DNA of 64,000 nucleotides, from NCBI GenBank assembly GCA_030527165.1, contig JAUNBH010000001.1:30698-94697 (forward strand). The letters run 5' to 3'. The notes beneath the pieces are model-generated. The model was not told the origin of the DNA. It saw only the letters and a program-made list of their open reading frames with translations, and did not search any database. The number at the start of each line of letters is the position of its first letter. The stretch's first letter is position 1. The translations under genes were made by a program, and so were the position numbers. This stretch comes from Clostridia bacterium (GTDB lineage: Bacteria > Bacillota > Clostridia > Christensenellales > CAG-138). Shown here piece by piece: positions 5,391-45,251 of the stretch.

Positions 5391-6863
5391 TCAGCCGCCA
5401 GTTGGCGCCTCGGCCTCCTCAGCCTTTGTGTGAACGTCCTTCCACACATAGAGCCACTTGCCGCGGTAGTAGCGCACGAGCGACAATATGCCCCGCATTG
5501 TCAGATCCAGGAACATGGCGTACCAAGCGCCCAACAGCCCCAGCTCAAAGACGTACGACAACAGGTACGCCACGCCTATTCGCACGCCCCACATGCCTAT
5601 GAACCCTATGTAGAACGACCACTTCGTGTCGCCCGCGCCGCGCAGCACGCCGGCAACTATGCTCGAAGCGGCGAACATGGTCTGGGCGCAGGCCTCCACC
5701 CTCAGCACCTGCGCGCCGAGCTCTATGACCTCCGCATCGGGGGTCATAATGGCTAAGAGCGGCGCGGCGGCAAAGTAGAGCACCGCCCCCATGGCGGTCA
5801 TGAAGCCCATGCCCCAGTACAGGCACTGGCGCGAGTAGCGCTTTGCAAGCTCGTGGTTGTTAGCGCCGAGGCACTGCGCCACGAGCGTAGTCGCCGCAGT
5901 AGAGAATCCAAACACCGGCATGTAGGTTATGCTCTCCGCCGTGATGGCGAGATAGTGAGCCGCCAGCACCTTTGTGCCGAGGCCCGTCACCATGGCCGTT
6001 AGCGCTATCTGCCCGCCCGAGAGCGCTATTCGCTCCAGCGCGACCGGATACGCGAGCCGCAGGGTGTCCTTCCAGATGGCGGCGTCGAGCCTGTAATTGT
6101 CGCGTATGCTGATTCTGGCGGGGTAGTCCTTGAGGTAGAGCGTGAGAATCATGATAAGCGCCGAAACGGACATTGAGATGACGGACGCGAGCGCCGCGCC
6201 CTGCACGCCCATATCCGCGCCCCACATCGTGAACGAGACGTCTATGAGCGCCGCGCCTGAGAAGGGCGACGTAATGTGGATAGCTACATCGCGCGTGGGG
6301 AAGATGAACAGGAAGTTCATTGCCACGTTAAGCACGTTTGCGATGAGATTTCCGACCATGGGCGTGCGCGTGTCGCCTGCGCAGCGGATTATCGCGCCCG
6401 AGATGGCGTTTGGCACGTTAAACAGGTACACGAACGCTATCACGGAGAGATACGCGGACGCGTCTGCGTGCAGGTATTCGTCGGCGCCGAGCCAGCCCGG
6501 CAGATACCCCGACAGCGCGAACAGCAGTATGCTTATCGCCGCCCCGAATACCAGCATGGCGACTACCGCTTGGCGCACGACGCGCTTTGCGCGCTCCCCG
6601 TCGCCCGCGCCTATGCTCCTGCCCACGAGCACGGAAAAGCCCACGCCCAGCGCACCGCACAGCCCGTTGATGAGCCATGTGGTAGAGGCGTTAAGGCCAA
6701 CTGCCGCCGATGCATCGGGCCCCAGCGAGCCGACCATGGCGGTGTCGACGTACATCACGGCAGACATGAGCAGCTGCTCGATGATCGTAGGCCATGCCAG
6801 TATGAACATGACCTTTACGGGATTGATGCTGCCGTCAAAAATATTCAGCGGCTTACCTTTCAT
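5391..6863 (-). CDS. MATE family efflux transporter
   Basis: About 12 predicted TM segments, with AWPTIIEQLL..YVDTAMVG and CAGDTRTP / GAGDTKWS repeats typical of MATE. The ORF extends to a GTG at 6905, but I prefer the ATG at 6863 (MKGKPLNIF...). The start is uncertain. Confidence 0.85.
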   Translation of the reverse strand: MKGKPLNIFDGSINPVKVMFILAWPTIIEQLLMSAVMYVDTAMVGSLGPDASAAVGLNASTTWLINGLCGALGVGFSVLVGRSIGAGDGERAKRVVRQAVVAMLVFGAAISILLFALSGYLPGWLGADEYLHADASAYLSVIAFVYLFNVPNAISGAIIRCAGDTRTPMVGNLIANVLNVAMNFLFIFPTRDVAIHITSPFSGAALIDVSFTMWGADMGVQGAALASVISMSVSALIMILTLYLKDYPARISIRDNYRLDAAIWKDTLRLAYPVALERIALSGGQIALTAMVTGLGTKVLAAHYLAITAESITYMPVFGFSTAATTLVAQCLGANNHELAKRYSRQCLYWGMGFMTAMGAVLYFAAAPLLAIMTPDAEVIELGAQVLRVEACAQTMFAASSIVAGVLRGAGDTKWSFYIGFIGMWGVRIGVAYLLSYVFELGLLGAWYAMFLDLTMRGILSLVRYYRGKWLYVWKDVHTKAEEAEAPTGG

Positions 6864-29540: not shown

Positions 29541-31619
29541 ATGGCGAGAACCACGGCGTTGGAGAACACCAGAAACATAGGAATAATGGCGCACATCGAT
29601 GCCGGGAAGACCACCACAACGGAGCGGATTCTCTACTACACCGGCAAGATTCGCAAGGTGGGCGAGGTGCATGAGGGCGCCGCGACCATGGATTTTATGG
29701 CGCAGGAGCGCGAGCGCGGGATAACCATACAGTCCGCCGCGACGACGACGTATTGGCGGGAGCACCGCATAAACATAATAGACACGCCGGGGCATGTGGA
29801 CTTCACCGTGGAGGTGGAGCGCTCGCTGCGGGTGCTGGACGGCGCGGTGGCGGTGTTTTGCGCCAAGGGCGGCGTGGAGCCGCAGAGCGAAACCGTGTGG
29901 CACCAGGCGACCAAGTACGGCGTACCCAGGATAGCCTATGTAAACAAGATGGACATAATGGGCGCGGATTTCTACAACGTCGTAGACATGCTCAGGGAGC
30001 GCCTGGGCGCCAATCCCGTACCCGTGCAGCTGCCCGTCGGGAGCGAGGCGAGCTTCCGCGGTATGATAGACCTGCTCAACATGAATGCGGAGCTCTACTA
30101 CGACGAGGAGGGCAACGACGTGCGCGTGGAGCCCATACCGGACGAGTATCTGGAGCGCGCGCAGGAATACCACGCCATGCTCATAGAAGCGGTGGCGGAG
30201 CAGGACGACTTGCTCGCGGACAAGTACTTAAGCGGCGAGGAGATAACGAAAGCGGAGATAATCGCCGCGCTGCGCTCTGCGACCATAGCCAACAAGGCGG
30301 TGCCGGTGTGCTGCGGCTCATCGTACAGAAACAGGGGCGTACAGCCGCTGCTGGACGCCATAGTGGACTATCTGCCTTCGCCTTTGGACATACCGCACGC
30401 CGTCGCCACCGCTTTGGACGGTCAGACGGAGGTGGAGGTGCCTACCGACGAGGAAGCGCCATTCGCCGCCCTGGCATTCAAGATAAACAACGACGCATAC
30501 GCCGGCAGGCTGGCGTTTTGCAGGATATACAGCGGCAAAATATCGAGCAACTGCTATGTGCTGAACGCAACCAAGGGCAAGCGCGAGCGCATCAGCAAGG
30601 CGGTGCTCATGCACGCCAATATGCGCGAGGAGCTGGATGAGGCGTACGCGGGCGACATAGTGGCGCTCGTGGGCGTGCGCGAAACGTCGACGGGCGATAC
30701 GCTCTGCGACCCCGAGCATCCGGTGCTGCTCGAGTCCATGGAGTTTCCGGATCCCGTCATAAGGGTGGCGGTGGAGCCCAAGACCAAGGCGGGGCAGGAT
30801 AAGCTGCTGGCGGCGCTCGTAAAGCTCATGGACGAGGACCCGACGTTTAAGACTTATACCGACAATGAGACCGGGCAGACGATAATCGCCGGCATGGGCG
30901 AGCTGCACCTGGACATAATAGTAAACAGGCTGATACGCGAGTTCAAGGTCGAATGCAAGGTGGGCAGCCCTCAGGTCGCGTACAGGGAAACGCTCACAAA
31001 GCCCGTGCGCATAGAGACGCGCTATGTGCGCCAGACCGGCGGTCACGGGCAGTACGCCCACATTGTAGTCGAGTTCTCACCCGTCGAATCGGGCGCGGGC
31101 ATATCGTTTGAGGATGCTACCGTGGGCGGCTCGGTACCCAAGGAGTTTGTGCCCGCCGTGGAGAAGGGCATACGCGAAGCGGCGAAATCCGGGCACTTGG
31201 CGGGTTACGAGGTGGTAGACTTCCACGCGAAGCTCGTAGATGGCAGCTTCCACGAGGTGGACTCCTCCGAGCTGGCGTTCGCGGTGGCGGGCAGCATGTG
31301 CCTGCGGGAAGCGCTCGCCAAGGCGGACTCGATACTGCTCGAGCCTTTTATGAAGGTGGAGATACTCGTGCCCGACGAGTATACTGGCGACATAGTCGGC
31401 AACCTTACATCGCGGCGCTCGCGTATAACGGCGCTTGACGTGCGCAATGGCGCGCAGGTTGTCCAGGCGACGGCTCCTCTCTCCGAGATGTTCGGTTATG
31501 CTACGGATTTGCGCTCCAGGACGCAGGGCAGGGGTACGTTTACCATGCAGTTTGACCACTACGAACAGGTCAGCCAGGCGGTATTCAAGAAGCTCGTCGG
31601 AGAGCCCATGCACGGGTAG
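29541..31619 (+). CDS. fusA: Elongation factor G (canonical)
   Basis: 692 aa. [33 protein letters not shown] and NKMD. It sits in the str-operon position after rpsG. Confidence 0.97.
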
Positions 31620-32361: not shown

Positions 32362-33354
32362 TCACGGCACAAACAGCCCCGCTGTGCCTCCGAGCGCGTA
32401 ATTGGCTATCACGAATGCCAGGTGGTCTGTCGCAGCGAGCGCCTCTTCGAGTGAGTTGGCGTTGTGCCCGACTTCCACGAGCAGGCTCTTGCGGGCTATG
32501 TGCTGGTTATACCTGCCGGTTTTTGTGCGCACATCGCGGGCGAGCGCCGGGTCTATATCCCTGAGCTTCTCGGTTATAAGCTCTGCGAGCGCGCTGTTGG
32601 CGGGGTAATTGCGCATGTTGTCGCTTCCCGCCTCGGCGTACTTAACGCCCCTGCCCACCACCATCATCAGGCGCGCCGTCTTTACGCCGTCTATGGTAAC
32701 GTAGTCCGTGTTCTCGCCGTTGACGGTGTAGGCGTCCCTGTGCACGTCGATTACGAGCTCTATTGTGGGGTACTCGGCGCAGTAGCGTTCCAGCATGGCG
32801 CAGGAGCGGTCGTATGAAGTGCTCAACTTGGGCGGCTCGAAGTTCTCAGTGACGTGTATCACCGCGATGCCGTAACGGTTCTCCAGCAGCTCTGCCAGCT
32901 TTGCGCCCACGGTCACTATATTGCGGGTGTTGTTGTCAGTGCGCCAGGCGCCGGTTTCGGCGTACTGGTATTGGCTCGTCTGATTGTACGCCTCAGTGGT
33001 GTGGGTATGGTATATAAGGACGGCGGGCTTGCTGCGGTCTAACTGCGTCGCGCCGGCGGAGGCGAGCGTCACGCTCTCCGGAGCGTCGGTGTGTGGAACC
33101 AAAGTCGGAATGAGCAGTTCGCGTATGTCCCCGCGCGGCAGCGCTGTCACGGAATCCGCCCCGGCGCCTGCCTGAGCTTCCGCCGCCACACCGAGCAGCG
33201 CGGGCGAGTTCAGGGAAATTATGCCGGACAGCGGCTGTGCGCCCAAGAATGCCGATTGCAGCGCGAGCGCGGCGATGCAGCCCAGTATTGACAGCGCGAG
33301 CGTCATGCGCCGCCTGCATATGAATAACCGCGTGTTTTTATTGCTGTGTCTCAT
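32362..33354 (-). CDS. spoIIP: Stage II sporulation protein P (SpoIIP amidase/endopeptidase)
   Basis: VLIYHTHTTEAY, DVHRDA and LVEVG motifs typical of SpoIIP, with an N-terminal TM anchor. I prefer the ATG at 33354 (AGGAGG RBS), because the 33540 start in the track would overlap the divergent gene. Confidence 0.88.
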   Translation of the reverse strand: MRHSNKNTRLFICRRRMTLALSILGCIAALALQSAFLGAQPLSGIISLNSPALLGVAAEAQAGAGADSVTALPRGDIRELLIPTLVPHTDAPESVTLASAGATQLDRSKPAVLIYHTHTTEAYNQTSQYQYAETGAWRTDNNTRNIVTVGAKLAELLENRYGIAVIHVTENFEPPKLSTSYDRSCAMLERYCAEYPTIELVIDVHRDAYTVNGENTDYVTIDGVKTARLMMVVGRGVKYAEAGSDNMRNYPANSALAELITEKLRDIDPALARDVRTKTGRYNQHIARKSLLVEVGHNANSLEEALAATDHLAFVIANYALGGTAGLFVP

Positions 33355-33405: not shown

Positions 33406-33435
33406 TTGACTTGCGCCAAACAAGTCGCGTACAAT
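33406..33435 (+). promoter_or_regulatory. Candidate SigA promoter for the P-loop/MutS-like gene pair (TTGACT-18 nt-TACAAT)
   Basis: TTGACT at 33406-33411 and TACAAT at 33430-33435, about 20 nt upstream of the ATG at 33455. Confidence 0.5.
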
Positions 33436-33454
33436 ACTCCCGAATGAGGTGCGC

Positions 33455-34438
33455 ATGATTCTGACTGAACTCGTGGCGAAGTACGGTTCGCTCTCCATAA
33501 TAGGAATGTGTAAAAACGCGGGCAAGACGACCGTGCTCAATGCGCTCGTGACGGGCTGGCGCGGAAATGGCGGCGCTTTGGCGCTGACGTCAATAGGGCG
33601 CGATGGAGAGAGTCAGGACGTCGTTACAGGTACGCACAAGCCCCGCATATATGTGCAGGAGGGCGCGCTCATCGCCACCGCTGCGGAGCTGCTTATGCAC
33701 TGTGACGTAACGCAGGAGGTGCTGGGCGCGACGGGCATAAGCACTCCATTGGGCGAAGTCGTGATAGTGCGCGCGCGGAGCGACGGCTATGTACAGCTTG
33801 GCGGGCCGTCCATGGCCCAACAGCTCATATGGTTAAACGGCGAGTTGGCGCGGCTCGGGGCGGAATTAGTCATAATCGACGGCGCGATAAGCCGCAAATC
33901 GCTGTGCGCGCCGGCAGTGACGGAGGCGACGATACTCTGCACGGGCGCGTCGTACTCTCCAAGCATAGAAAAGGTAGTGCAGGATACGGCGCGCGCGGCG
34001 CAGCTGCTCACGCTCCCCAAGAGCGAATACTGGCGGCACGTCCCGCAAGCGCGCATAACGCTGGGCGCGCGCGCGGGTGAGGAGCTGCCGTGTCCCGACA
34101 TGACGCTGCACGAGGCCGTTCGGGCGCATCCTGAGTGTGACAGGGTGTTCATGAGGGGCGCCGTCACGGATTCCATGCTCCTGCCGGTGCTCACGAGCGC
34201 CGCCCCGCTTGAGGGATACGAGTTCTGCGCTGAGGACGCGAGTAAGCTCCTGCTGTCGCCGCAGGTGGTGGAGAAGCTGGAGCTCAGGCGCTGTGCCCTG
34301 AGCGTGTTCAGGCGGACGGAGCTGCTGGCAGTCGCCGTAAACCCCGTCAGCGCGTACGGAACGGACTTTGACCGCTCGGAGCTGAGGCGCAGGATGTGCG
34401 CGGCGGTCGACGTACCCGTCATTGACGTAATGGAGTGA
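33455..34438 (+). CDS. Uncharacterised P-loop NTPase (deviant Walker A, G-x5-GKT)
   Basis: About 327 aa. N-terminal SIIGMCKNAGKTTVLNAL, a probable Walker B-like LVIIDGA, and a C-terminal domain of unknown function. The stop lies 3 nt before the start of the next gene. Confidence 0.7.
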   Translation: MILTELVAKYGSLSIIGMCKNAGKTTVLNALVTGWRGNGGALALTSIGRDGESQDVVTGTHKPRIYVQEGALIATAAELLMHCDVTQEVLGATGISTPLGEVVIVRARSDGYVQLGGPSMAQQLIWLNGELARLGAELVIIDGAISRKSLCAPAVTEATILCTGASYSPSIEKVVQDTARAAQLLTLPKSEYWRHVPQARITLGARAGEELPCPDMTLHEAVRAHPECDRVFMRGAVTDSMLLPVLTSAAPLEGYEFCAEDASKLLLSPQVVEKLELRRCALSVFRRTELLAVAVNPVSAYGTDFDRSELRRRMCAAVDVPVIDVME

Positions 34439-34441
34439 GAG

Positions 34442-35905
34442 ATGATAGTGCTTAGCTATGAATTGATGGAAAAGAGCGGTCTGCGCTACGTCCTGGACAT
34501 GTTGGGCACGTGCTCGCCGTATGGCGCCCAGCGCAAGCGCAGGCTCCGCGTATACGACCGCGCGAGCAGGGCAGAGCTCGTCGACGAGCTGTACAACGTG
34601 CGCCGCATAGTGGAGTACATGGGGGAGCACGACTGCTCCGGCCTGGAGCGGCTGCTCATGGGGCTCAAGGACATACGGCGTTCCGTGGAGGCGCTCGGCT
34701 CGCTCGCACTGAGCGATGTCGAGCTGTTTGAGCTAAAGCGCTTCTTCCTGCAGCTGGAGCGGATAGCGCCGGAATACGCGCAGCTTGACGAGGCGTGCGA
34801 GCTCAGGGGGATGCACATAGCGAGCTATCCCGAGGCGCTGCGCATTTTAGACCCCGAGGGCCAGCGCGCACCCACTTTCATGGTGAGCTCGCGGTATTCG
34901 GAGCGCTTGACGGCCATACGGCGCGAGAAGCGCGACATAGAGGAGCGCATACGCAGCGCAGACGGTGGGGAGCGCGAACAGCTGATGCTGGAGCGCACGC
35001 GAATAGCCGCCTGCGAGGACGAGGAGCAGGCGAATGTGCGCCGCGGGCTGTGCGAGCGGCTCCTGCCGTACGCGCGGGACGTGCTGCTCACCATAGACTC
35101 CCTGGGCAGGCTCGACTTCACGCTGGGCAGGGCGCGGCTTGCGCGGGCTCACGGCTGTTGCGCGCCAGAGTTGACCGATGCTCGCGTGGCGTTTGAAGGA
35201 ATGACACACCCGCAGGTTGCGCACGCGCTGGAGCAGCGCTCCAAGGCGTTTACGCCCATAGACGTGTCCGTGGACAGGGGGGTCACGGTCATCACCGGCG
35301 CCAATATGGGCGGAAAGAGCGTCGCGCTCAATTCGATAGCGCTCAACGTGCTCTGTGTGCACTGCGGCATATTTCCCTTTGCCCGCTCCGCGGCCGTGCC
35401 GCTGTTTGACGGCCTGCACATGATTTCGGAGGACGCGCAGGACGCGTCTCGCGGGCTGTCCAGCTTCGGCGCGGAGATGCTGCAGCTCGACGGGGCGGTA
35501 TCGCAGCTTCGGGAGGGGGAGCTGGCGCTGCTGCTCATAGACGAGCTCGCGCGGGGCACGAATCCCGACGAGGGCGCGTCAATAGTGCGCGGAGTGGTCG
35601 CCATGCTGCGCGCCGAGGCGGCGGTGACGGTGCTCGCGACGCACTACGACGACGTCGCGTGCCTGGCGGACGCGCACTACCAGGTCAAGGGCATGGCGCA
35701 GGCGGATCTCGCGGAGCTGCGGCGGAGGATACAGCTGCAGCGGACGGCGTCCATAGAACTCATAGAGGAGTGCATGGATTACGGTATAGCGCGCGTCGAC
35801 GGGAATAACGGGGTTCCCAAGGACGCCGTAGAGATATGCGAGCTGCTGGGGATTAACGAAAAAATCATGAGAAGCATAAAGAATTTCGTTGACAAGCGGC
35901 GCTGA
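34442..35905 (+). CDS. MutS domain V-type ABC ATPase without mismatch-binding or Smr domains (MutS-related protein)
   Basis: 487 aa. Walker A is ITGANMGGKSVALNSIAL, Walker B is LLLIDELARGTNPDEG, and LATHY is the TH motif. The N-terminal half is helical and shows no MutS domain I motif. Confidence 0.8.
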   Translation: MIVLSYELMEKSGLRYVLDMLGTCSPYGAQRKRRLRVYDRASRAELVDELYNVRRIVEYMGEHDCSGLERLLMGLKDIRRSVEALGSLALSDVELFELKRFFLQLERIAPEYAQLDEACELRGMHIASYPEALRILDPEGQRAPTFMVSSRYSERLTAIRREKRDIEERIRSADGGEREQLMLERTRIAACEDEEQANVRRGLCERLLPYARDVLLTIDSLGRLDFTLGRARLARAHGCCAPELTDARVAFEGMTHPQVAHALEQRSKAFTPIDVSVDRGVTVITGANMGGKSVALNSIALNVLCVHCGIFPFARSAAVPLFDGLHMISEDAQDASRGLSSFGAEMLQLDGAVSQLREGELALLLIDELARGTNPDEGASIVRGVVAMLRAEAAVTVLATHYDDVACLADAHYQVKGMAQADLAELRRRIQLQRTASIELIEECMDYGIARVDGNNGVPKDAVEICELLGINEKIMRSIKNFVDKRR

Positions 35906-35917
35906 GAGTTATATCCT
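35889..35917 (+). promoter_or_regulatory. Candidate promoter embedded in the 3' end of the MutS-like gene (TTGACA-17 nt-TATCCT), positioned to start transcription just before the riboswitch
   Basis: Perfect -35 at 35889-35894 and a weaker -10 TATCCT at 35912-35917. The predicted TSS is about 10 nt upstream of the riboswitch P1. Confidence 0.4.
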
Positions 35918-35933
35918 CTATACATAAGAATAG

Positions 35934-36097
35934 GTTGGTAGAGGCGCGGTGCGCAAGGTAGTGCGAAGCGGTGACATGGGGCGTGTGGCTTCGCGCGAAT
36001 GTGCGGCCGCCGAAAGGACGGAGCGGCCCCCGCTCGGTTCTTGGGCGCAACGCTCAGCGCGGTGCGACTGTCGTCCGGGAGACGGAGCGCTATCAAT
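35934..36097 (+). promoter_or_regulatory. Lysine riboswitch (L-box) aptamer
   Basis: The 5' GTTGGTAG-AGGCGC and the 3' ACTGTC-GTCcgggaGAC-GGAGCGC-TATCAAT follow the conserved L-box pattern (..UAGAGGnGC....GCCGAAAGG....ACUGUC-hairpin-GGAGnGCUA..). P2 is GCGAAGC/GCTTCGC, and P3 is GGCCGC-CGAAAGGACGGA-GCGGCC with the GCCGAA motif. The length of about 164 nt is in the typical range. Confidence 0.85.
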
Positions 36098-36137
36098 GCA
36101 CGAACGGTGATTTCGTGTGTTGGTAGCTTTTTGTTTT
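36089..36137 (+). terminator. Intrinsic terminator forming the riboswitch expression platform (shares its 5' arm with the aptamer P1 3' strand)
   Basis: GCTATCAA (36089-36096) pairs with TTGGTAGC (36120-27). The inner stem is CACGAA/TTCGTG. TTTTTGTTTT follows at 36128-36137. Confidence 0.75.
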
Positions 36138-36207: not shown

Positions 36208-36588
36208 ATGAAGTCAATGATAAGGTTGCGCATGAGCGCGCACGACGCGCATTACGGCGGGAATCTTGTGGACGGCGCCAGAATGCTGCAGCTGTTCGGA
36301 GATGTTGCTACGGAGCTCCTCATACAGCGCGACGGCGACGAGGGTCTGTTCAAGGCGTACGACATGATTGAGTTCATGGCGCCCGTGTACGCCGGGGACT
36401 ACATCGAGGCAGTCGGAGAGATAGTCGCGGAGGGCAATACGTCCCGCAAGATGGTCTTTGAGGCGAGGAAGGTAATCGTGCCGCGCCCCGACATAAACGA
36501 TTCGGCGTGCGACGTGCTGCCGGAGCCCATAGTAGTGTGCCGCGCGAGCGGAACGTGCGTGGTACCCAGGGACAAGCAGAGAAAGTGA
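36208..36588 (+). CDS. kal: 3-aminobutyryl-CoA ammonia-lyase (hotdog fold)
   Basis: 126 aa. The size, the lysine-fermentation context and [29 protein letters not shown]...[12 protein letters not shown] fit a hotdog fold. AGGGGGA RBS before the ATG at 36208. Confidence 0.8.
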
Positions 36589-36596
36589 GGACAGGT

Positions 36597-37424
36597 ATGG
36601 AAAAACTCATTATAACCGCGTGCATATGCGGCGCGGAAGTGACCAAGGAACACAATGCGGCGGTGCCGTACACCGTGGAGGAGATAGCACAGCAGGCATA
36701 CGACGCGTACAAGGCGGGCGCTTCGATAATACACCTTCACGTTCGCTGGGACGACGGCACGCCCACGCAGGACAGAGGGCGCTTTGAGGAGTGCATGAAG
36801 GCGATATACGAGCGCTGCCCGGACGTCATAATACAGCCCTCGACCGGCGGCGCGGTGGGCATGTCCAACGATGAGCGGCTCCAGCCCATAACGCTTCGCC
36901 CGGAGATGGCGACGTTGGACTGCGGGACGTGCAATTTCGGCGGGGACGACATATTCGTAAACACCGAGAACATGATAATCGACTTCGCGCAGAAGATGAA
37001 CGCGCTGGGCATAAAGCCCGAGATTGAGGTGTTCGACAAGGGCATGATAGACATGGCGAAGCGCCTCGCGAAGAAGGGTCACATCAAGACGCCCATGCAC
37101 TTCGACTTCGTAATGGGCGTAAACGGCGGCATATCCGGCGACGCGCGGGACCTGGTGTTCATGGCGGGCAGCATACCCGAGGGCTCGACCTGGACGGTTG
37201 CGGGCGTAGGCAGGTTCGAGTTCCCCATGGCGGTGATGGGCATCATCATGGGAGGCCATGTGCGCGTGGGCTTTGAGGACAACGTGTACCTGTCCAAGGG
37301 AGTGCCGGCAAAGAGCAACGGCGAGTTGGTTGAGAAGGTCGTGCGGCTTGCGCAGGAGCTGGGCAGGGAGATAGCCACTCCGGACGAGGCGAGGGGAATA
37401 CTCGGCCTTCCGCCGAGGGCGTGA
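36597..37424 (+). CDS. kce: 3-keto-5-aminohexanoate cleavage enzyme (BKACE/DUF849 family)
   Basis: 275 aa. MEKLIITACICGAEVTKEHNAAVPYT..IIHLHVR..GGAVG, a TIM-barrel BKACE signature. Confidence 0.88.
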   Translation: MEKLIITACICGAEVTKEHNAAVPYTVEEIAQQAYDAYKAGASIIHLHVRWDDGTPTQDRGRFEECMKAIYERCPDVIIQPSTGGAVGMSNDERLQPITLRPEMATLDCGTCNFGGDDIFVNTENMIIDFAQKMNALGIKPEIEVFDKGMIDMAKRLAKKGHIKTPMHFDFVMGVNGGISGDARDLVFMAGSIPEGSTWTVAGVGRFEFPMAVMGIIMGGHVRVGFEDNVYLSKGVPAKSNGELVEKVVRLAQELGREIATPDEARGILGLPPRA

Positions 37425-37474: not shown

Positions 37475-38515
37475 ATGACAATGAAGGGCAACAAGTACGG
37501 GATCCACAGGGTAATAGAGCCGCAGGGCGTGCTCACGCAGGCGGCGTACCGCATTGACAACGACATGAGCAAGCGCTACTCGAACGAGATAATCTGCGAC
37601 GTCATTTCGCTCAACATCGACTCCGCGTCTTTCACTCAGATCGAGGAAGTATGTGGCGGCGACGAGCAGAAGATTGGCGAGATGATACTCTCGATAGTGG
37701 CGGAGCGCGGCAAGCAGCAGAATCCGGTCACGGGTTCGGGCGGAATGTTCATAGGCAAAGTCGCCTACATAGGCGAAGACCTCAAGGACAGGGACCTCAA
37801 GGTGGGCGACAAGATAGCGTCGCTCGTATCCCTCTCGATGACGCCTCTGCGCATAGACAAGATACTCGCCATACACAAGGACATAGACCGCGTAGACATA
37901 ATCGGTCAGGCGGTGCTGTTCGAGAGCGGCATATACGCCAAGCTGCCCGAGGACATGAGCGAGGCGCTGGCGCTTGCGGCTCTGGACGTGGCGGGTGCTC
38001 CCGCGCAGGCGCGCAAGCTCCCCAAGGAAGGGGACAGCGTGCTCATAATAGGCGCGAACGGCAAGTCCGGCGTGCTGTGCGGCTATGAAGCGATGAAGGC
38101 GGTAGGGCCCAACGGCAACGTCGTGGGCGTAGTCCGCAATCCCAAGCAGGTACCGGGTCTCATAGAGCTGGGCGTGTTCCACAAGGTCATCGTGGCCAGC
38201 GCGACCGAGCCCGTAGCGCTGCTCGAGGCGGCGCTCGAGGCGAACGACGGCAAGGAGTACGACATATCGATAAGCTGCGTAAACGTGGAGAGCTGCGAGA
38301 TGAGCGCGATACTCCCCGTACGCGACGACGGACTGGTCTATTTCTTCTCCATGGCGACGAGCTTCACGAAGGCCGCGCTGGGAGCGGAGGGCATAGGCAA
38401 GGACGTTACCATGATAGTGGGCAACGGCTACACGAAGGATCACGCAGAGATAACGCTGAACATACTGAGGGAGAGCGAGAAGCTGCGCAAGCTCTTCGAC
38501 CAGAAGTACGTATAA
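37475..38515 (+). CDS. kdd: L-erythro-3,5-diaminohexanoate dehydrogenase
   Basis: 346 aa. N-terminal NKYGIHRVIEPQGVLTQAAYRIDND and a Rossmann GANGKSG. Context is between kce and kamA. Confidence 0.85.
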   Translation: MTMKGNKYGIHRVIEPQGVLTQAAYRIDNDMSKRYSNEIICDVISLNIDSASFTQIEEVCGGDEQKIGEMILSIVAERGKQQNPVTGSGGMFIGKVAYIGEDLKDRDLKVGDKIASLVSLSMTPLRIDKILAIHKDIDRVDIIGQAVLFESGIYAKLPEDMSEALALAALDVAGAPAQARKLPKEGDSVLIIGANGKSGVLCGYEAMKAVGPNGNVVGVVRNPKQVPGLIELGVFHKVIVASATEPVALLEAALEANDGKEYDISISCVNVESCEMSAILPVRDDGLVYFFSMATSFTKAALGAEGIGKDVTMIVGNGYTKDHAEITLNILRESEKLRKLFDQKYV

Positions 38516-38590: not shown

Positions 38591-39844
38591 ATGAGAAAGA
38601 GCAGGGAATTCGGTTTGTTCAAGGACGTGCCCGACGAGCTGTGGAACGACTGGCATTGGCAGGTCACAAACCGCATAGAGACATTGGAAGACCTCAAGAA
38701 GTATGTTGAGCTCACACCCGAGGAGGAGGACGGCGTAGCAAAGTGCCTCTCCACGCTGAGAATGGCCATCACGCCGTATTATCTGTCGCTCATAGACCCC
38801 ACGGATCCACACGACCCCGTGAGGAGGCAGGCGATACCCACGGCATTGGAGCTGCACCAGGCGGATGCCGACCTGTTGGACCCGCTGCACGAGGATACGG
38901 ACTCGCCTGTGCCGGGACTCACGCACAGGTATCCGGACAGGGTGCTGCTGCTCATAACCGACCAGTGCTCCATGTACTGCCGCCACTGCACGCGGAGGCG
39001 TTTTGCGGGTCAGAACGACTGCGCCGTGCCCAAGAAGCAGATAGAGGCGTGCATAGAGTATGTCAGAAACCATCCCGAAGTGCGCGACGTGCTGCTCTCG
39101 GGCGGCGACGCGCTCATGCAGAACGATGACGTGCTGGAGTTCATAATCAGCTCGCTGCGCGCGATACCCCACGTTGAGATAGTAAGGCTGGGCTCGCGGA
39201 CGCCGGTGGTCATGCCGCAGAGGATAACGCCGGAGCTGTGCGCTATGCTCAAAAAGTACCATCCCATATGGCTCAACACTCACTTCAACCATCCCAACGA
39301 GATAACCGAGGAGTCCGCGGCGGCTTGCGCAAGGCTCGCGGACGCCGGCATACCCCTCGGCAACCAGAGCGTGCTGCTCGCGGGCGTGAACGACTGCGTA
39401 CACGTCATGAAGAAGCTCGTGCAGGACCTGGTGAGGATAAGGGTGCGGCCGTACTACATCTACCAGTGCGACCTCTCCATGGGGCTGGAGCACTTCCGCA
39501 CACCCGTGGCGAAGGGCATAGAGATAATCGAGGCGCTGCGCGGTCACACATCCGGTTACGCGGTACCGACATTCGTCGTGGACGCGCCCGGCGGCGGCGG
39601 CAAGACGCCCGTAATGCCCAATTACATAATCAGCCAGTCTTACAATAAGGTGATACTGCGCAACTTCGAGGGCGTGATAACGACCTATACGGAGCCGGAG
39701 CACTACGAGGAGACCTGTCAGTGCGAGGTCTGCCGCGGGGCGAAGCAGGCGGAGCTCATAGGCGTGGCGGGACTTGAGAGAGGGCAGCAGCTCGCCATGG
39801 AGCCCAAGGATTTGGCGCGGTCTAAGCGCGGCCGTCACGATTGA
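38591..39844 (+). CDS. kamA: L-lysine 2,3-aminomutase (radical SAM, PLP)
   Basis: 417 aa. WNDWHWQV, the radical-SAM CSMYCRHCTRRR, and a C-terminal Cys cluster CQCEVC. Confidence 0.95.
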   Translation: MRKSREFGLFKDVPDELWNDWHWQVTNRIETLEDLKKYVELTPEEEDGVAKCLSTLRMAITPYYLSLIDPTDPHDPVRRQAIPTALELHQADADLLDPLHEDTDSPVPGLTHRYPDRVLLLITDQCSMYCRHCTRRRFAGQNDCAVPKKQIEACIEYVRNHPEVRDVLLSGGDALMQNDDVLEFIISSLRAIPHVEIVRLGSRTPVVMPQRITPELCAMLKKYHPIWLNTHFNHPNEITEESAAACARLADAGIPLGNQSVLLAGVNDCVHVMKKLVQDLVRIRVRPYYIYQCDLSMGLEHFRTPVAKGIEIIEALRGHTSGYAVPTFVVDAPGGGGKTPVMPNYIISQSYNKVILRNFEGVITTYTEPEHYEETCQCEVCRGAKQAELIGVAGLERGQQLAMEPKDLARSKRGRHD

Positions 39845-39937: not shown

Positions 39938-41497
39938 ATGGAGAGCAAACTGCATCTTAACAGAGAACTGGTCGATAAGGCGCGCGAGTCCGCCAGGCGC
40001 ATAGCTCAGGACACGCAGCGCTTTATAGACGTTCACACCACCGTTACGGTCGAGAGAGCGGTGTGCAGGCTGCTGGGGATAGACGGAGTAAACGCCGTAG
40101 ACGTGCCGCTGCCCAATGTGGTCGTAGACCACATGACGGAGAAGGGGATACTGGCTTCCGGCGCGGCGTACTACATAGGCAACGCCATGGCGAACACGGG
40201 TCTGACGCCCCAGGAGATAGCCGAGAGGATAGACGCGGGCGAACTCGACCTGACGCGACAGGGCGCGCACAGCATAGCCGAGATAAGGGCAAATATCGTG
40301 CCTGTGGCGGAGCGCACTGTCGCACGGATACGCGCCAATGTCGCCAAGCGAAACGAGTATCTCGGCGAGTTTGGGGACAAAGAGGGCCCGTACTTGTATG
40401 TAATAGTGGCGACGGGCAACATATATGAGGACATTACGCAGGCGAGGGCTGCCGCGAAGCAGGGCGCGGACATAATCGCCGTGATAAGGACGACCGGGCA
40501 GAGCCTGCTGGACTATGTGCCCTACGGGGCCACTACGGAGGGCTTCGGCGGCACATACGCCACGCAGGAGAACTTCCGGCTCATGCGTGCCGCACTGGAC
40601 GAAGTCGGACGGGAGGAGAAGCGCTACATCAGGCTGTGCAACTACTGTTCGGGGCTGTGCATGCCGGAGATAGCCGCTATGGGTGCGCTCGAGCGGCTGG
40701 ACGTCATGCTCAACGACGCGCTCTACGGCATACTCTTCCGCGACATCAACATGCAGCGGACGATAGTTGACCAGTACTTCTCGAGGGTAATAAACTCCTT
40801 TGCGGGTGTGATAATAAACACCGGGGAGGACAATTATCTCACGACGGCGGACGCGGTCGAGGAGGCGCATACAGTCTTGGCGTCACAGTTCTTAAACGAG
40901 CAGTTCGCGCTCTGCGCGGGACTGCCGGAGGAACAGCAGGGGCTGGGGCATGCTTTCGAGATATCGCCCGATGTAGAGAACGGTTTCCTGTACGAACTCG
41001 CCCAGGCGCAGATGGCGAGGGAAATATTCCCCAAGGCGCCGCTCAAGTACATGCCGCCCACCAAATTCATGACGGGCAACATATTCAGAGGGCATGTTCA
41101 GGACGCGCTGTTCAACATGGTGACCATACTGACTTCGCAGAAGCTGCACCTGCTGGGAATGCTCACGGAGGCGATACACACGCCTTTCATGAGCGACAGG
41201 GCGCTGTCCATTGAGAACGCGCAGTACATATTCCGCACAATGAAGGATTTGGGCGCGGAAATCGAGTACAAAGAGGGCGGCATAATGGAGACGCGCGCCA
41301 ACGAAGTGCTCGCGAAGGCGACAAGCCTGCTCGCGGAGATAGAACAGATGGGGCTGTTTGCGACGCTTGAGAAGGGCATTTTCGCTGACATAAAGCGCTC
41401 GCGCGAGGGCGGCAAGGGCCTTGCGGGAGTGGTGATACGGAGCGAGGAGTACTTCAACCCGTTTATAGAGCTGATGAAAGGCGGTGCGGAGTCATGA
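39938..41497 (+). CDS. kamD: Beta-lysine (D-lysine) 5,6-aminomutase alpha subunit
   Basis: MESKLHLNRELVDKARE..HTTVTVERAVCRLLGIDGV..YVIVATGNIYEDITQA..GGTYATQENFRLMR closely matches my recollection of Clostridium sticklandii KamD. I prefer the ATG at 39938. Confidence 0.93.
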   Translation: MESKLHLNRELVDKARESARRIAQDTQRFIDVHTTVTVERAVCRLLGIDGVNAVDVPLPNVVVDHMTEKGILASGAAYYIGNAMANTGLTPQEIAERIDAGELDLTRQGAHSIAEIRANIVPVAERTVARIRANVAKRNEYLGEFGDKEGPYLYVIVATGNIYEDITQARAAAKQGADIIAVIRTTGQSLLDYVPYGATTEGFGGTYATQENFRLMRAALDEVGREEKRYIRLCNYCSGLCMPEIAAMGALERLDVMLNDALYGILFRDINMQRTIVDQYFSRVINSFAGVIINTGEDNYLTTADAVEEAHTVLASQFLNEQFALCAGLPEEQQGLGHAFEISPDVENGFLYELAQAQMAREIFPKAPLKYMPPTKFMTGNIFRGHVQDALFNMVTILTSQKLHLLGMLTEAIHTPFMSDRALSIENAQYIFRTMKDLGAEIEYKEGGIMETRANEVLAKATSLLAEIEQMGLFATLEKGIFADIKRSREGGKGLAGVVIRSEEYFNPFIELMKGGAES

Positions 41498-42285
41498 GCG
41501 GAGGATTGTACAACACCAGCAAGCAGGATTTCGACAAGACGCTGGATCTGCGCAAGCTGAAGGCGTACGGCGACACGATGAACGACGGCAAAGTTCAGCT
41601 TTCCTTCACGCTGCCCGTGAAGAACGACGAGCGCGGCATGGAGGCGGCGCGGCAGTTGGCGCGGCAGATGGGCGTTTCGGATCCCAACGTCGCGCACAGC
41701 CAGAGCCTCGATGCGGAGTTTACGTTCTACGTCGTTTACGGTTCGTGTGCGCATACCGTTGACTACGAGGGCATACATGTGGAGACTGTTGAGGCGGAAA
41801 CCATGGGCATGGAGGAAGTCAACGAGTACATACGGGAGAACATAGGGCGCAAGGTCATAATGGTGGGCGCGTCCACAGGCACGGATGCGCACACCGTGGG
41901 CATAGACGCCATAATGAATCGCAAGGGCTTTGCCGGCCACTACGGATTGGAGCGCTATGAGATGATAGAGGCGTACAATCTCGGCGCGCAGGTGACCAAC
42001 GAGGACTTCCTCAAACAGGCGTTGGAGCTAAACGCGGACGTGCTGTTGGTCTCGCAGACGGTGACTCAGAAGGACGTGCACATAGCCAACCTGACAGAGC
42101 TGATAGAGCTCATGGAGGCGGAGGGCGTGCGCTCGCGCTTCATAGTGGTGTGCGGCGGCGCGCGGATAACTCACGAGCTCGCGAAGGAGCTCGGCTATGA
42201 TGCGGGCTTCGGGGCACAGAAGTACGCGGATGACGTGGCGACCTTTGCCGTTACTGAGATGGCAAAGCGCAATATGGGCAAATAA
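41494..42285 (+). CDS. kamE: Beta-lysine 5,6-aminomutase beta subunit (B12-binding and PLP-binding)
   Basis: 263 aa. It overlaps kamD by 4 nt (ATGA). It has a Rossmann-like B12-binding domain (VGASTGTDAHTVGIDAI, base-off His motif DxHxxG). Confidence 0.92.
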   Translation: MSGGLYNTSKQDFDKTLDLRKLKAYGDTMNDGKVQLSFTLPVKNDERGMEAARQLARQMGVSDPNVAHSQSLDAEFTFYVVYGSCAHTVDYEGIHVETVEAETMGMEEVNEYIRENIGRKVIMVGASTGTDAHTVGIDAIMNRKGFAGHYGLERYEMIEAYNLGAQVTNEDFLKQALELNADVLLVSQTVTQKDVHIANLTELIELMEAEGVRSRFIVVCGGARITHELAKELGYDAGFGAQKYADDVATFAVTEMAKRNMGK

Positions 42286-42300
42286 CAAGGAGGCATTTAG

Positions 42301-43443
42301 ATGGACTTTCAACTGTCGAAGGAACATGCTCTGCTGAGGGAGCTCTATCGGAGCTTCGCTCAGGCTGAAGTCAAGCCTTTGGCCGAGGAAATCGACGAAC
42401 AGGAGCGCTTCCCCGTGGAGACGGTAAAGCAGCTCGGGCGGTATGGGTTCATGGGTATACCGTATCCGAAGGAGTACGGCGGAGCAGGGGCGGACACATT
42501 GGCGTACGTCATGGCGATAGAGGAGCTGTCGCGGGTATGCGGCACCACGGGCGTCGTAGTATCCGCGCACACATCGCTGTGCTGCGGGCCGATATACGAG
42601 TTCGGCACTGAGGAGCAGAAGCGCAAGTACCTGCCGGGGCTGTTGTCAGGCGAGCGCGTAGGCGCCTTTGGGCTTACGGAGCCCGGGGCGGGCACGGACG
42701 CGGCGGGGCAGCAGACAAAGGCCGTGCTCGCGGGCGATAACTGGGTACTCAACGGCACCAAGATATTCATAACCAACGCCGGCCACGCGGACGTGTTCAT
42801 CATATTTGCCATGACGGATAAGGCGCAGGGCACGCGGGGCATATCCGCGTTCATAGTGGAGCGCGGCTTCGAGGGCTTCAGAGTGGGCAAAGAGGAGAAG
42901 AAGATGGGCATAAGGGGCTCGTCCACCTGCGAGCTCATAATGGAGGACTGCATAGTGCCCAAGGAGAATCTGCTGGGCGGATTGAACAAGGGCTTCAAGG
43001 TCGCGATGAAGACGCTGGACGGCGGCAGGATAGGCATTGCTGCGCAGGCGCTCGGCCTCGGGGAGGGCGCGGTTGACGAGGCGATAAAGTACGTCAAGGA
43101 GCGCAAGCAGTTTGGACGCAGGATATCTCAGTTCCAGAACACGCAGTTCAAGCTTGCGGATATGAGTACGCGCATGCAGGCGGCGCAGTACCTCGTGTAC
43201 AGCGCGGCGCTCGCCAAGGACAGCGGCGCTGCGTACAGCAAGGAGGCGGCGATGGCTAAGCTGTTCGCATCGGAAGCCGCCAATGACGTGACGCGGCAGG
43301 CGGTGCAGCTCTTTGGCGGATACGGCTACACGCGCGAGTATCCGGTGGAGCGCATGATGCGCGACGCGAAGATAACCGAGATATACGAGGGCACGAGCGA
43401 AGTCATGCGCATGGTCATTGCCTCGGCGCTCGGTGTTAATTAG
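42301..43443 (+). CDS. bcd: Butyryl-CoA dehydrogenase (short-chain acyl-CoA dehydrogenase, Etf-dependent)
   Basis: 380 aa. GLTEPGAGTDA, YEGTSE and other typical ACAD motifs. etfB and etfA follow directly. Confidence 0.9.
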   Translation: MDFQLSKEHALLRELYRSFAQAEVKPLAEEIDEQERFPVETVKQLGRYGFMGIPYPKEYGGAGADTLAYVMAIEELSRVCGTTGVVVSAHTSLCCGPIYEFGTEEQKRKYLPGLLSGERVGAFGLTEPGAGTDAAGQQTKAVLAGDNWVLNGTKIFITNAGHADVFIIFAMTDKAQGTRGISAFIVERGFEGFRVGKEEKKMGIRGSSTCELIMEDCIVPKENLLGGLNKGFKVAMKTLDGGRIGIAAQALGLGEGAVDEAIKYVKERKQFGRRISQFQNTQFKLADMSTRMQAAQYLVYSAALAKDSGAAYSKEAAMAKLFASEAANDVTRQAVQLFGGYGYTREYPVERMMRDAKITEIYEGTSEVMRMVIASALGVN

Positions 43444-43453
43444 GGAGGCGCTT

Positions 43454-44245
43454 ATGAACATAATCGTATGCATTAAGCAGGTTCCGGACACCACGGAGGT
43501 CAAGCTCGATCCCGTTACGGGAACGCTGATAAGAGAGGGCGTGCCGAGCATAATAAACCCGGATGACAAGGCAGGGCTGGAAGCGGCGCTGAGAATAAAG
43601 GAGCAAAACGGCGCGCGCGTGACGGTGGTCAGCATGGGCCCGATGCAGGCGGACGTCGCACTCCGGGAAGCGCTAGCGATGGGCGCGGACGAGGCGTACC
43701 TCATAAGCGACAGGGCGTTTGGCGGCGCGGACACCTGGGCGACTTCGTACACGATAGCCGCTGCGATACGCACTCTCGATTACGACCTGATAATTGCGGG
43801 GCGGCAGGCGATAGACGGCGATACGGCGCAGGTAGGGCCGCAGATAGCGCAGCACCTGGGGCTTCCGCAGGTGAGCTATGTGGAAGCGGTGGAGCGTGTG
43901 GAGGCGGGTTCGCTCGTGCTGCGCAGGCAGTTTGAGGACAGGTATCACATAGTCGAGGTAGCCACCCCGTGCGTGATAACGGTGCTGTCCGAGCTCAACA
44001 AACCGCGCTACATGAGCGTGTCCGGCGTAATGGATGCGTACCGCGAGAAGACGGTGAACGTGCTCACGCTCGCGCAGCTCGAATCCGTGATAGACAAGGG
44101 CAACATCGGCCTGGGCGGTTCGCCCACCAGGGTCAAGCAGAGTTTCACGAAACAGCCGAAGGCGAAGGGCGAAAAGTACGAGGTCGACGCCGACGAAGCG
44201 GTACGGCTCATAGTGGAATGGCTGGAAGCCAGGCACATCATCTGA
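43454..44245 (+). CDS. etfB: Electron transfer flavoprotein subunit beta
   Basis: MNIIVCIKQVPDT..INPDD..AGRQAIDGDT. I prefer the start at 43454 over the 43418 extension. Confidence 0.92.
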   Translation: MNIIVCIKQVPDTTEVKLDPVTGTLIREGVPSIINPDDKAGLEAALRIKEQNGARVTVVSMGPMQADVALREALAMGADEAYLISDRAFGGADTWATSYTIAAAIRTLDYDLIIAGRQAIDGDTAQVGPQIAQHLGLPQVSYVEAVERVEAGSLVLRRQFEDRYHIVEVATPCVITVLSELNKPRYMSVSGVMDAYREKTVNVLTLAQLESVIDKGNIGLGGSPTRVKQSFTKQPKAKGEKYEVDADEAVRLIVEWLEARHII

Positions 44246-44252
44246 CGGGGGC

Positions 44253-45251
44253 ATGAACATGAGTAGAAACATTCTTGTATTTGCGGAGCAGCGGAACGGC
44301 GTGCTGCAGAAGGTAGCCGCGGAGCTGATAGGCAAGGCGTCGGAATTGGCGCAAAAGCTCGATGAGCAGGTGATTGCGCTCATACTGGGGCACGGCGTTG
44401 AGCGCTTAGCGCAGGAGGCGATAGAATACGGCGCCGACAGTGCGATAGTCGTAGACGCGCCCGAGCTCGGGGAGTATTTGACCGCGCCGTACACGCGGGC
44501 GGCGGTTGAAGCGATAAGGCGCGCAGAGCCGGGCATAGTGCTCTACGGGGCGACCTCCTTAGGCCGCGACCTCGCGCCGAGGGTGTCCGCCACGGTAAAG
44601 ACGGGCCTGACCGCGGACTGCACCAAGCTGGAGATAGACGAGGAGTCGCGCTTGCTGCTGATGACGCGCCCCGCGTTTGGCGGCAACATAATGGCGACGA
44701 TAGTGTGCGCGGAGCACCGCCCGCAGATGGCGACCGTGCGCCCCGGCGTGATGCAGGCGCTCCCGCGCGACGCGGGCAGGCGCGGCGAGGTGACGCGGCT
44801 TGACGTGGCGTTCTGCGAGGAGGACAATCGCGTGCGCATACTGGAAGTCGTAAAGGGCGACAGAAAGGACGTCGACATAACGGAGGCGAAGGTGCTCGTG
44901 TCCGGCGGCAGGGGCATAGGTGGCGCTGAGAAGTTTGCGCTGCTCAAGCAGCTGGCGGAGCAATTCCCCGGCGGTGAGATATCCTCGTCGAGGGCAAATG
45001 TGGACGCGGGTTTCATAGGTCGTGAGCGCCAGGTCGGGCAGACGGGGAAAACCGTGCGGCCGAAGCTCTACATAGCCTGCGGCATATCGGGAGCCATACA
45101 GCACATAGCGGGAATGGAGGACGCCGACTTCATAATCGCCATAAACAAAGACCCGGGCGCGCCAATATTCGATGTGGCGGACTTGGGCATAGTCGGGGAT
45201 CTCAACGTGGTGCTGCCGAAGCTGATAGCCGCGCTCGAGCGGCGGGCATAG
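44253..45251 (+). CDS. etfA: Electron transfer flavoprotein subunit alpha
   Basis: 332 aa. The C-terminal FAD-binding block is VSGGRGIG...SRANVDAGF..QVGQTGKTVRPKLYIACGISGAIQH. Confidence 0.92.
   Translation: MNMSRNILVFAEQRNGVLQKVAAELIGKASELAQKLDEQVIALILGHGVERLAQEAIEYGADSAIVVDAPELGEYLTAPYTRAAVEAIRRAEPGIVLYGATSLGRDLAPRVSATVKTGLTADCTKLEIDEESRLLLMTRPAFGGNIMATIVCAEHRPQMATVRPGVMQALPRDAGRRGEVTRLDVAFCEEDNRVRILEVVKGDRKDVDITEAKVLVSGGRGIGGAEKFALLKQLAEQFPGGEISSSRANVDAGFIGRERQVGQTGKTVRPKLYIACGISGAIQHIAGMEDADFIIAINKDPGAPIFDVADLGIVGDLNVVLPKLIAALERRA

Follow-up and report, generated by a model that had tools for sequence, protein, structure and literature searches.

The reactivases of diol and glycerol dehydratases are two-subunit factors that are encoded beside their client enzymes and have actin/Hsp70-fold ATPases. 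Here we describe a pair of ATPase genes, kamB and kamC, for which a similar job on another B12 enzyme, lysine 5,6-aminomutase (5,6-LAM), has been proposed. The genes lie on a 64,000-nucleotide (nt) stretch of DNA, hereafter the window, from an uncultured Clostridia bacterium (GenBank assembly GCA_030527165.1, contig JAUNBH010000001.1, positions 30,698 to 94,697 of the forward strand). All coordinates of the locus refer to the window.

5,6-LAM comprises the core enzyme E1 (KamDE) and E2, an auxiliary sulfhydryl protein of ~80 kDa (PMC3958899, PMC9081730). Reviews from 2014 and 2022 attribute reactivation and ATP-dependent regulation to E2, and both describe it without a gene (PMC3958899, PMC9081730). 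Recombinant KamDE is active without E2, yet it self-inactivates during turnover (PMC3958899). For isolated E2, the 2014 review reports adenosylcobalamin (AdoCbl) synthetase activity and a transfer of label to E1 from [8-14C]ATP; E2 also enabled ATP to act as an allosteric activator (PMC3958899). Genes labeled 'HP' and 'mutS', with no function attached, appear in a 2011 figure that covers three lysine-fermentation gene clusters, those of Fusobacterium nucleatum, a Bacteroidetes contig, and Cloacamonas (PMC3149608). In the full-text open literature, we found no paper assigning genes to E2.

Our analyses indicate, with a probability of roughly 0.78, that kamBC encodes the two subunits of an ATP-dependent KamDE reactivase, i.e., the classical Clostridium 'E2' activity. 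We base this reading on matches to curated equivalog families, the tight pairing of the genes, their synteny with the kam operon, and their conserved motifs. The original prediction, made from the letters of the window, had arrived at a reactivase or cofactor-exchange chaperone for KamDE corresponding to the historical E2. That proposal is supported, and it is identical to the curated equivalog names in NCBIfam. The idea is consequently already known through NCBI curated annotation, and the accompanying statement that the E2 gene was never firmly assigned does not hold at the annotation level (NF052386, NF052383).

Family membership and predicted folds of KamB and KamC

We compared the predicted proteins with the profiles of NCBIfam release 20.0 (June 2026), using the curated equivalog cut-offs. 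The kamB product matched NF052386, 'lysine 5,6-aminomutase reactivase subunit KamB', with 317.7 bits against a cut-off of 210; residues 15-327 of its 329-amino-acid (aa) GTG-start translation covered positions 1-326 of the 326 in the profile. The kamC product matched NF052383, 'lysine 5,6-aminomutase reactivase ATPase KamC', with 466.7 bits against a cut-off of 300 (residues 13-482 on profile positions 2-507 of 508). Judged by these scores, both well above the cut-offs, the window proteins are members of the KamB and KamC families and show no detectable difference from them. The gene pairing and the kamDE neighborhood are the same as well. The window pair differs in that it lies upstream of a riboswitch-led operon with a promoter candidate of its own, and GenBank still lists both proteins (locus tags Q4B99_00265 and Q4B99_00270 of the Clostridia metagenome-assembled genome, MAG) as 'hypothetical protein'. 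Homologues and cluster members were named either 'hypothetical protein' or 'DNA mismatch repair protein MutS'. A PADLOC scan for anti-phage defence returned trivial P-loop matches only.

KamB matched zero Pfam families, even at E <= 10. Its AlphaFold2 model (predicted local distance difference test, pLDDT, 90.6; predicted template modeling score, pTM, 0.87) has a P-loop alpha/beta fold. Foldseek searches of the PDB with this model returned nothing at E <= 0.001. The best matches were weak, extended over roughly 180 aa at the N terminus, and were to SIMIBI-class proteins (Wzc/Etk, Get3, SRP54, and MeaB). The model places KamB among the P-loop NTPases of the SIMIBI class, without a close solved structure. 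The best match in a profile search of PDB sequences was MobB (E 0.2), and the MobB P-loop was the only sub-threshold Pfam match of KamB homologues. Alignment of 25 homologues revealed the invariant motifs SIIGMCKNAGKTT, LTSIGRDGE, DGA.SRK, LC.GAS, and NP.SAY, and three invariant cysteines (C19, C151, and C162), one of which is inside the deviant Walker A.

The P-loop spacing G-x5-GK[TS] is the motif of ATPases of the dethiobiotin synthetase (DTBS), CobQ, and CobB type, and KamB has the same spacing. The original prediction had taken this as a sign of affinity to DTBS and CobQ. We found no CbiA, AAA_26, or DTBS profile match for KamB at E <= 10, and CTP synthase appeared in the Foldseek list with a probability of only 0.15. 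We dropped the DTBS/CobQ reading because the Foldseek, PDB profile, and Pfam searches gave no such membership, and the resemblance is one of P-loop spacing only.

Another SIMIBI-class NTPase, MeaB/MMAA, is described as gating the loading and removal of cobalamin on methylmalonyl-CoA mutase (PMC10481361). The N-terminal domain of KamB falls in the same broad class. The match to MeaB (2qm8) was weak (Foldseek rank 47, TM 0.26, probability 0.77), and no G3E profile match was found for KamB. KamB differs from MeaB in that its loop is G-x5-GKT, a beta-rich insertion is present, and the C-terminal domain is unrelated.

Pfam detected MutS_V only in KamC (residues 283-464, 85 bits). Across 28 homologues, the Walker A (GANMGGKS), the Walker B (DELARGTNPDEG), the signature (LSSFGAE, of the form SSFGxE), and the H-loop (THY) were invariant. 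With these four elements invariant, KamC is expected to be an active ATPase of the ATP-binding cassette (ABC) type. By analogy with the MutS family, its functional form is probably a dimer in which the ATP sites are composite. The motifs named in the original prediction (GMCKNAGKTT in KamB; GANMGGKS, LLLIDELARGTNPDEG, and LATHY in KamC) are present in the translations and are invariant or nearly so across homologues.

The KamC model (pLDDT 89.8) aligned over its full length to the MutS2 cores of Bacillus subtilis (7qv3), T. maritima (9kce), and T. thermophilus (7vuf), with Foldseek E values of 1e-18 to 1e-21, TMq of 0.67-0.74, and TMt of ~0.70 (7vuf and 9kce). It also aligned with MutS and MSH structures. 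By this full-length alignment to MutS2 cores, KamC has a helical lever/core domain beside the ATPase domain V. KamC lacks the N-terminal mismatch-recognition domain, the KOW domain, and the Smr domain. A description as a protein with MutS domain V only, as first given, is right as far as Pfam goes (MutS_V alone, no domain I and no Smr) and falls short for the model, which shows a whole MutS2 core.

We also asked how KamC scores as a mismatch-repair protein. Against MutS2 (TIGR01069) it reached 152.4 bits with a cut-off of 400 and aligned only to positions 239-463 of 790. Against MutS it reached 94.9 bits (TIGR01070, cut-off 641.7) and 116.5 bits (NF003810, cut-off 480), and the alignment began at MutS residue ~497. 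With sub-cut-off scores, no Smr domain, MutS_V as the only domain match, and an end at 487 aa, KamC was rejected as a MutS2 or MutS mismatch-repair protein. It shares with MutS2 (RqcU) the lever/core and ABC domain V fold and the Walker A, Walker B, signature, and H-loop motifs. It differs in the lack of KOW and Smr, an identity of 18-21%, the pairing with KamB, and the linkage to a B12 enzyme in place of DNA or ribosome functions.

Pairing and synteny of kamBC across genomes

We profiled the gene context of kamBC beyond the window. When one genome per GTDB species was scanned by pattern, a KamB relative was encoded in at least 586 stretches, and 80 loci were examined. Linkage to kam genes was surveyed by tblastn with the window proteins, and 69 loci were informative. 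kamC follows kamB in 77 of the 78 untruncated loci (77/80 overall, as two exceptions are on truncated contigs). The gaps between the two genes are mostly <= 15 nt, or the genes overlap. The KamB family contains 2233 clusters at 50% identity (E <= 0.001), and no KamB-KamC fusion was found among the best 150 of these 2233 cluster representatives, all of which are 208-373 aa long.

The genes kal-kce-kdd-kamA-kamD-kamE lie directly downstream of kamBC in 48/69 informative loci, usually with a gap of 309-622 nt between kamC and the kam operon. A finding of the pair mostly in contexts unrelated to kam genes had been named in the original prediction as the outcome that would speak against it; most informative loci are kam-adjacent. 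All of the linked loci tested (11/11) have a lysine riboswitch between kamC and kal. The riboswitch was not found in seven tested loci without a linked kam operon, i.e., six stand-alone pairs and L017, the sole untruncated exception to kamB-kamC pairing. The conserved design is [kamB-kamC], riboswitch, [kal...kamE]. As the riboswitch lies between kamC and kal, the reactivase genes are predicted to be outside its control.

Compared with the window proteins, KamB and KamC have identities of only 35-62%, and KamD, KamE, and Kdd of the same loci have identities of 73-96%. By this measure, sequence change in the kamBC pair is much faster than in KamDE, the presumed client. Two Oscillospiraceae-type loci have a glmS ribozyme a few kb upstream of kamB (L060, 4536-4696; L079, 7226-7433), which is probably unrelated.

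Gene layout in the window and the riboswitch-led operon

The kamB gene (33455..34438, forward strand) encodes a P-loop NTPase of 327 aa and 35.0 kDa with the deviant Walker A GMCKNAGKT, and it ends with TGA at 34436-34438. The list of open reading frames opens kamB at GTG 33449 (329 aa), and the alternative ATG at 33455 gives 327 aa. The deposited protein has 327 aa and a GAGG lies 5 nt upstream of ATG 33455, so we consider this ATG the likelier start. The kamC gene (34442..35905, forward strand) encodes the MutS2-core-like ABC ATPase of 487 aa and 54.3 kDa. The junction reads ...GTA ATG GAG TGA gag ATG, which leaves a gap of 3 nt (gag), and a GGAG within the 3' end of kamB is placed 6 nt ahead of the kamC ATG as an internal Shine-Dalgarno sequence. 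The short gap and the GGAG inside the end of kamB fit translational coupling of kamC to kamB. The GC content of kamBC (63.8%, against 60.4% for the window) gives no clear signal of horizontal transfer, and we rejected this possibility.

A sigma-70-like promoter candidate for kamBC lies at 33406..33435 on the forward strand (TTGACT at 33406-33411, 18 nt, TACAAT at 33430-33435). Its function is inferred from a 10/12 match to the consensus, tied as the best among four sites in the region with the one at 35889-35917. Shuffled sequences contained 1.0 +/- 1.1 promoter-like sites, compared with four in the region. Position 33406, the first base of the stretch that the original prediction had singled out, is thus in the -35 hexamer and is not part of a codon. 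The coordinates of the gene pair 3 nt apart, of the TTGACT-18-TACAAT site, and of the location directly upstream of the lysine riboswitch were all confirmed. The second promoter-like site (35889..35917, forward strand; TTGACA, 17 nt, TATCCT; 10/12) straddles the kamC stop just 5' of the riboswitch and suggests separate transcription of the riboswitch-led operon. As there is no terminator 3' of kamC, the kam operon may have a promoter of its own in addition to read-through from kamBC.

The lysine riboswitch aptamer (35931..36100, forward strand) matched RF00168 with 68 bits (gathering score 30; E 1.2e-15) and begins 25 nt past the kamC stop. Its 3' end overlaps an intrinsic terminator that forms the predicted expression platform (36089..36137, forward strand), with a 16-pair stem followed by TTTTTGTTTT. 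The 5' arm of the terminator (GCTATC...) overlaps the final 12 nt of the aptamer. GGTAGC, at the end of the terminator's 3' arm, mimics the start of the first helix of the aptamer. Given this overlap, an aptamer stabilised by lysine would compete with the terminator. The riboswitch would then be an ON switch, as suits a catabolic operon.

The genes that follow, all on the forward strand, each exceed their NCBIfam equivalog cut-offs. They are kal, 3-aminobutyryl-CoA ammonia lyase (36208..36588; NF052388, 197.8 bits against a cut-off of 160); kce (36597..37424; NF052387, 463 bits; Pfam BKACE); kdd, L-erythro-3,5-diaminohexanoate dehydrogenase (37475..38515; NF052381, 257.7 bits); kamA, the radical S-adenosylmethionine (SAM) enzyme lysine 2,3-aminomutase (38591..39844; TIGR03820, 626.5 bits); kamD (39938..41497; NF052384, 924.6 bits; Pfam Lys-AminoMut_A); and kamE (41494..42285; NF052385, 398 bits; Pfam OAM_dimer and B12-binding). 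kamD is 4 kb downstream of kamBC. Genes for an acyl-CoA dehydrogenase, etfB, and etfA follow at 42301..45251 on the forward strand and would serve the crotonyl-CoA reduction step; these are assignments to the best NCBIfam families, all below the curated cut-offs. Homologues of these genes in loci L081-L084 have Pfam Acyl-CoA_dh and ETF matches.

Upstream, the divergent neighbour of kamB is spoIIP, encoding stage II sporulation protein P (32362-33352, reverse strand; TIGR02867, 154 bits), preceded by the gene for elongation factor G (29541-31619, forward strand). With these two genes as upstream neighbours, we place the beginning of the lysine-fermentation region at kamB.

KamBC as a proposed reactivase of KamDE

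For kamBC, this work establishes the gene structure, the families, the conserved motifs, the folds, and the conservation of pairing and synteny. We infer that the proteins form a complex, hydrolyse ATP, act on KamDE, and exchange its cofactor. KamDE would inactivate itself during turnover and be left with a damaged cobalamin. KamC may couple ATP binding and hydrolysis to the movement of a clamp or lever, and KamB, closely co-expressed with it, would be the partner that contacts the B12-binding domain of KamE. Acting together, the two would open KamDE, expel the damaged cofactor, and allow fresh AdoCbl to enter. Transcription of the pair would rely on its own predicted promoter, which precedes the lysine riboswitch of the catabolic operon and leaves the pair outside it. 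The combined mass of KamB and KamC, 89.3 kDa, is near the ~80 kDa estimate for E2 if the complex is 1:1, and KamB has three invariant cysteines.

The proposed job, ATP-dependent release of damaged cobalamin, is the same as that of DdrAB, PduGH, GdrAB, and EutA. The folds are unrelated, as KamBC combines a P-loop NTPase with a MutS-type ABC ATPase. Reactivases with the actin fold (DdrA/GdrA/EutA/MutL-GlmL) were absent from the top 50 Foldseek matches of either model and from the profile matches. If the curated names were derived from comparative genomics alone, KamBC would represent a third class of B12 reactivase, without structural precedent, and the Stadtman/Barker E2 would gain its gene identity. 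We put this forward tentatively and consider it doubtful. A MutS2-type ABC clamp and a deviant SIMIBI NTPase would then act on a protein-bound cofactor and not on nucleic acid.

Several points weigh against KamBC as the KamDE reactivase. The pair lies away from any kam gene in 21/69 informative loci (about 30%), and the presence of kamD elsewhere in the genome was verified for only one of these 21, the MAG ADurb.Bin248. Locus L017 (10001-17640) encodes a KamB (315 bits against NF052386) and has no kamC within 6.6 kb downstream. An E2 of ~80 kDa does not fit a KamC dimer plus KamB. The family names of KamB and KamC are an annotation and not a test, and we found no open-access experimental paper or PDB entry for either protein. 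A frameshifted kamC at L017 was considered and rejected, as the plus-strand open reading frames downstream look non-coding and gave no KamC match.

The stand-alone pairs are at L007, L009-L011, L013, L015, L020, L031, L038, L040, L042, and L045-L049, and further ones are at L052, L053, L058, L073, and L080. One clade of them shares the gene order transketolase-kamB-kamC-flavodiiron protein. On the KamB and KamC models, the scores of stand-alone pairs are as high as those of linked pairs, and in the KamB tree the stand-alone pairs form several clades interleaved with linked clades. From these two findings, we interpret the stand-alone pairs as members of the same family that have lost the linkage and not as distant paralogues. 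ADurb.Bin248 has its stand-alone pair on MWBW01000014 (L015), and a KamD (P0320) is found under the same organism name. Reciprocally, kam operons with KamD P0320 or P0286 (L081-L090) have no kamBC within 10 kb. These cases suggest that at least some stand-alone pairs are in genomes that encode the aminomutase elsewhere. Among these kam operons, L082 keeps a lysine riboswitch ahead of kal (5777-5953), and at L085 none was detected at the gathering score in the 430-nt gap.

The activities reported for isolated E2 (AdoCbl synthesis, transfer of ATP label to E1, and allosteric activation by ATP; PMC3958899) could also be read as those of a module for cofactor delivery or activation. KamBC would then load AdoCbl, adenosylate the cofactor, or activate KamDE allosterically, and no damaged cofactor would be removed. 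The SIMIBI class of KamB, which includes the B12 chaperone MeaB, is in keeping with this role, although that structural match is weak (rank 47). However, neither KamB nor KamC had an adenosyltransferase profile match at the scanned thresholds, and the name chosen by the NCBIfam curators is 'reactivase'. Recombinant KamDE works without E2 and self-inactivates (PMC3958899), which favours repair over obligatory loading. We consider a loading module unlikely.

KamBC could instead serve another client, either the radical-SAM enzyme KamA, whose gene also sits in the linked operon, or other B12 enzymes where kamBC stands alone. The share of unlinked loci, about 30%, and their conserved transketolase-flavodiiron context would suit such a client. 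However, the proteins of stand-alone and linked pairs belong to a single family and are intermixed in the tree, one stand-alone genome carries kamD elsewhere, and no gene for a B12 enzyme or kamA-like gene was present beside the stand-alone pairs inspected. We know of no radical-SAM enzyme that requires a MutS-like ATPase, which we count against KamA as the client. We regard a different client for the family as quite improbable. Neither of the alternatives named in the original prediction, assistance to KamA and a regulatory module, was supported.

That KamC is a truncated MutS2-type ATPase of nucleic-acid or ribosome quality control, with KamB as a partner NTPase and an incidental proximity to kam genes, is very improbable: the closest structures are MutS2 proteins, including the ribosome-bound MutS2 of B. 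subtilis, and GenBank often labels homologues 'DNA mismatch repair protein MutS', but the scores are far from the MutS2 and MutS cut-offs (152 bits against 400 and 116 against 480), Smr, KOW, and domain I are lacking, the kam synteny is kept across many species, and no defence-system match of note was found.

As the assignment of KamBC to KamDE reactivation is already in the curated NCBI models, what this locus contributes is a further member, from an uncultured Clostridia MAG, and no new idea. Its residual value is twofold. In ~30% of related loci the pair is away from the kam operon, and kamBC may serve clients other than KamDE there. In addition, the KamBC class appears to be without a solved structure and, in open sources, without published biochemistry. 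5,6-LAM is a classic suicide-prone radical enzyme dependent on B12 and pyridoxal 5'-phosphate, and it catalyses a step in gut butyrate production from lysine. The identity of its reactivase matters for the use of 5,6-LAM as a biocatalyst and for the maintenance of B12 enzymes. The architecture of KamBC is unlike both the actin-fold reactivases and the MeaB G-protein chaperones, and KamC would represent a motor of the MutS family that has been recruited to metabolism.

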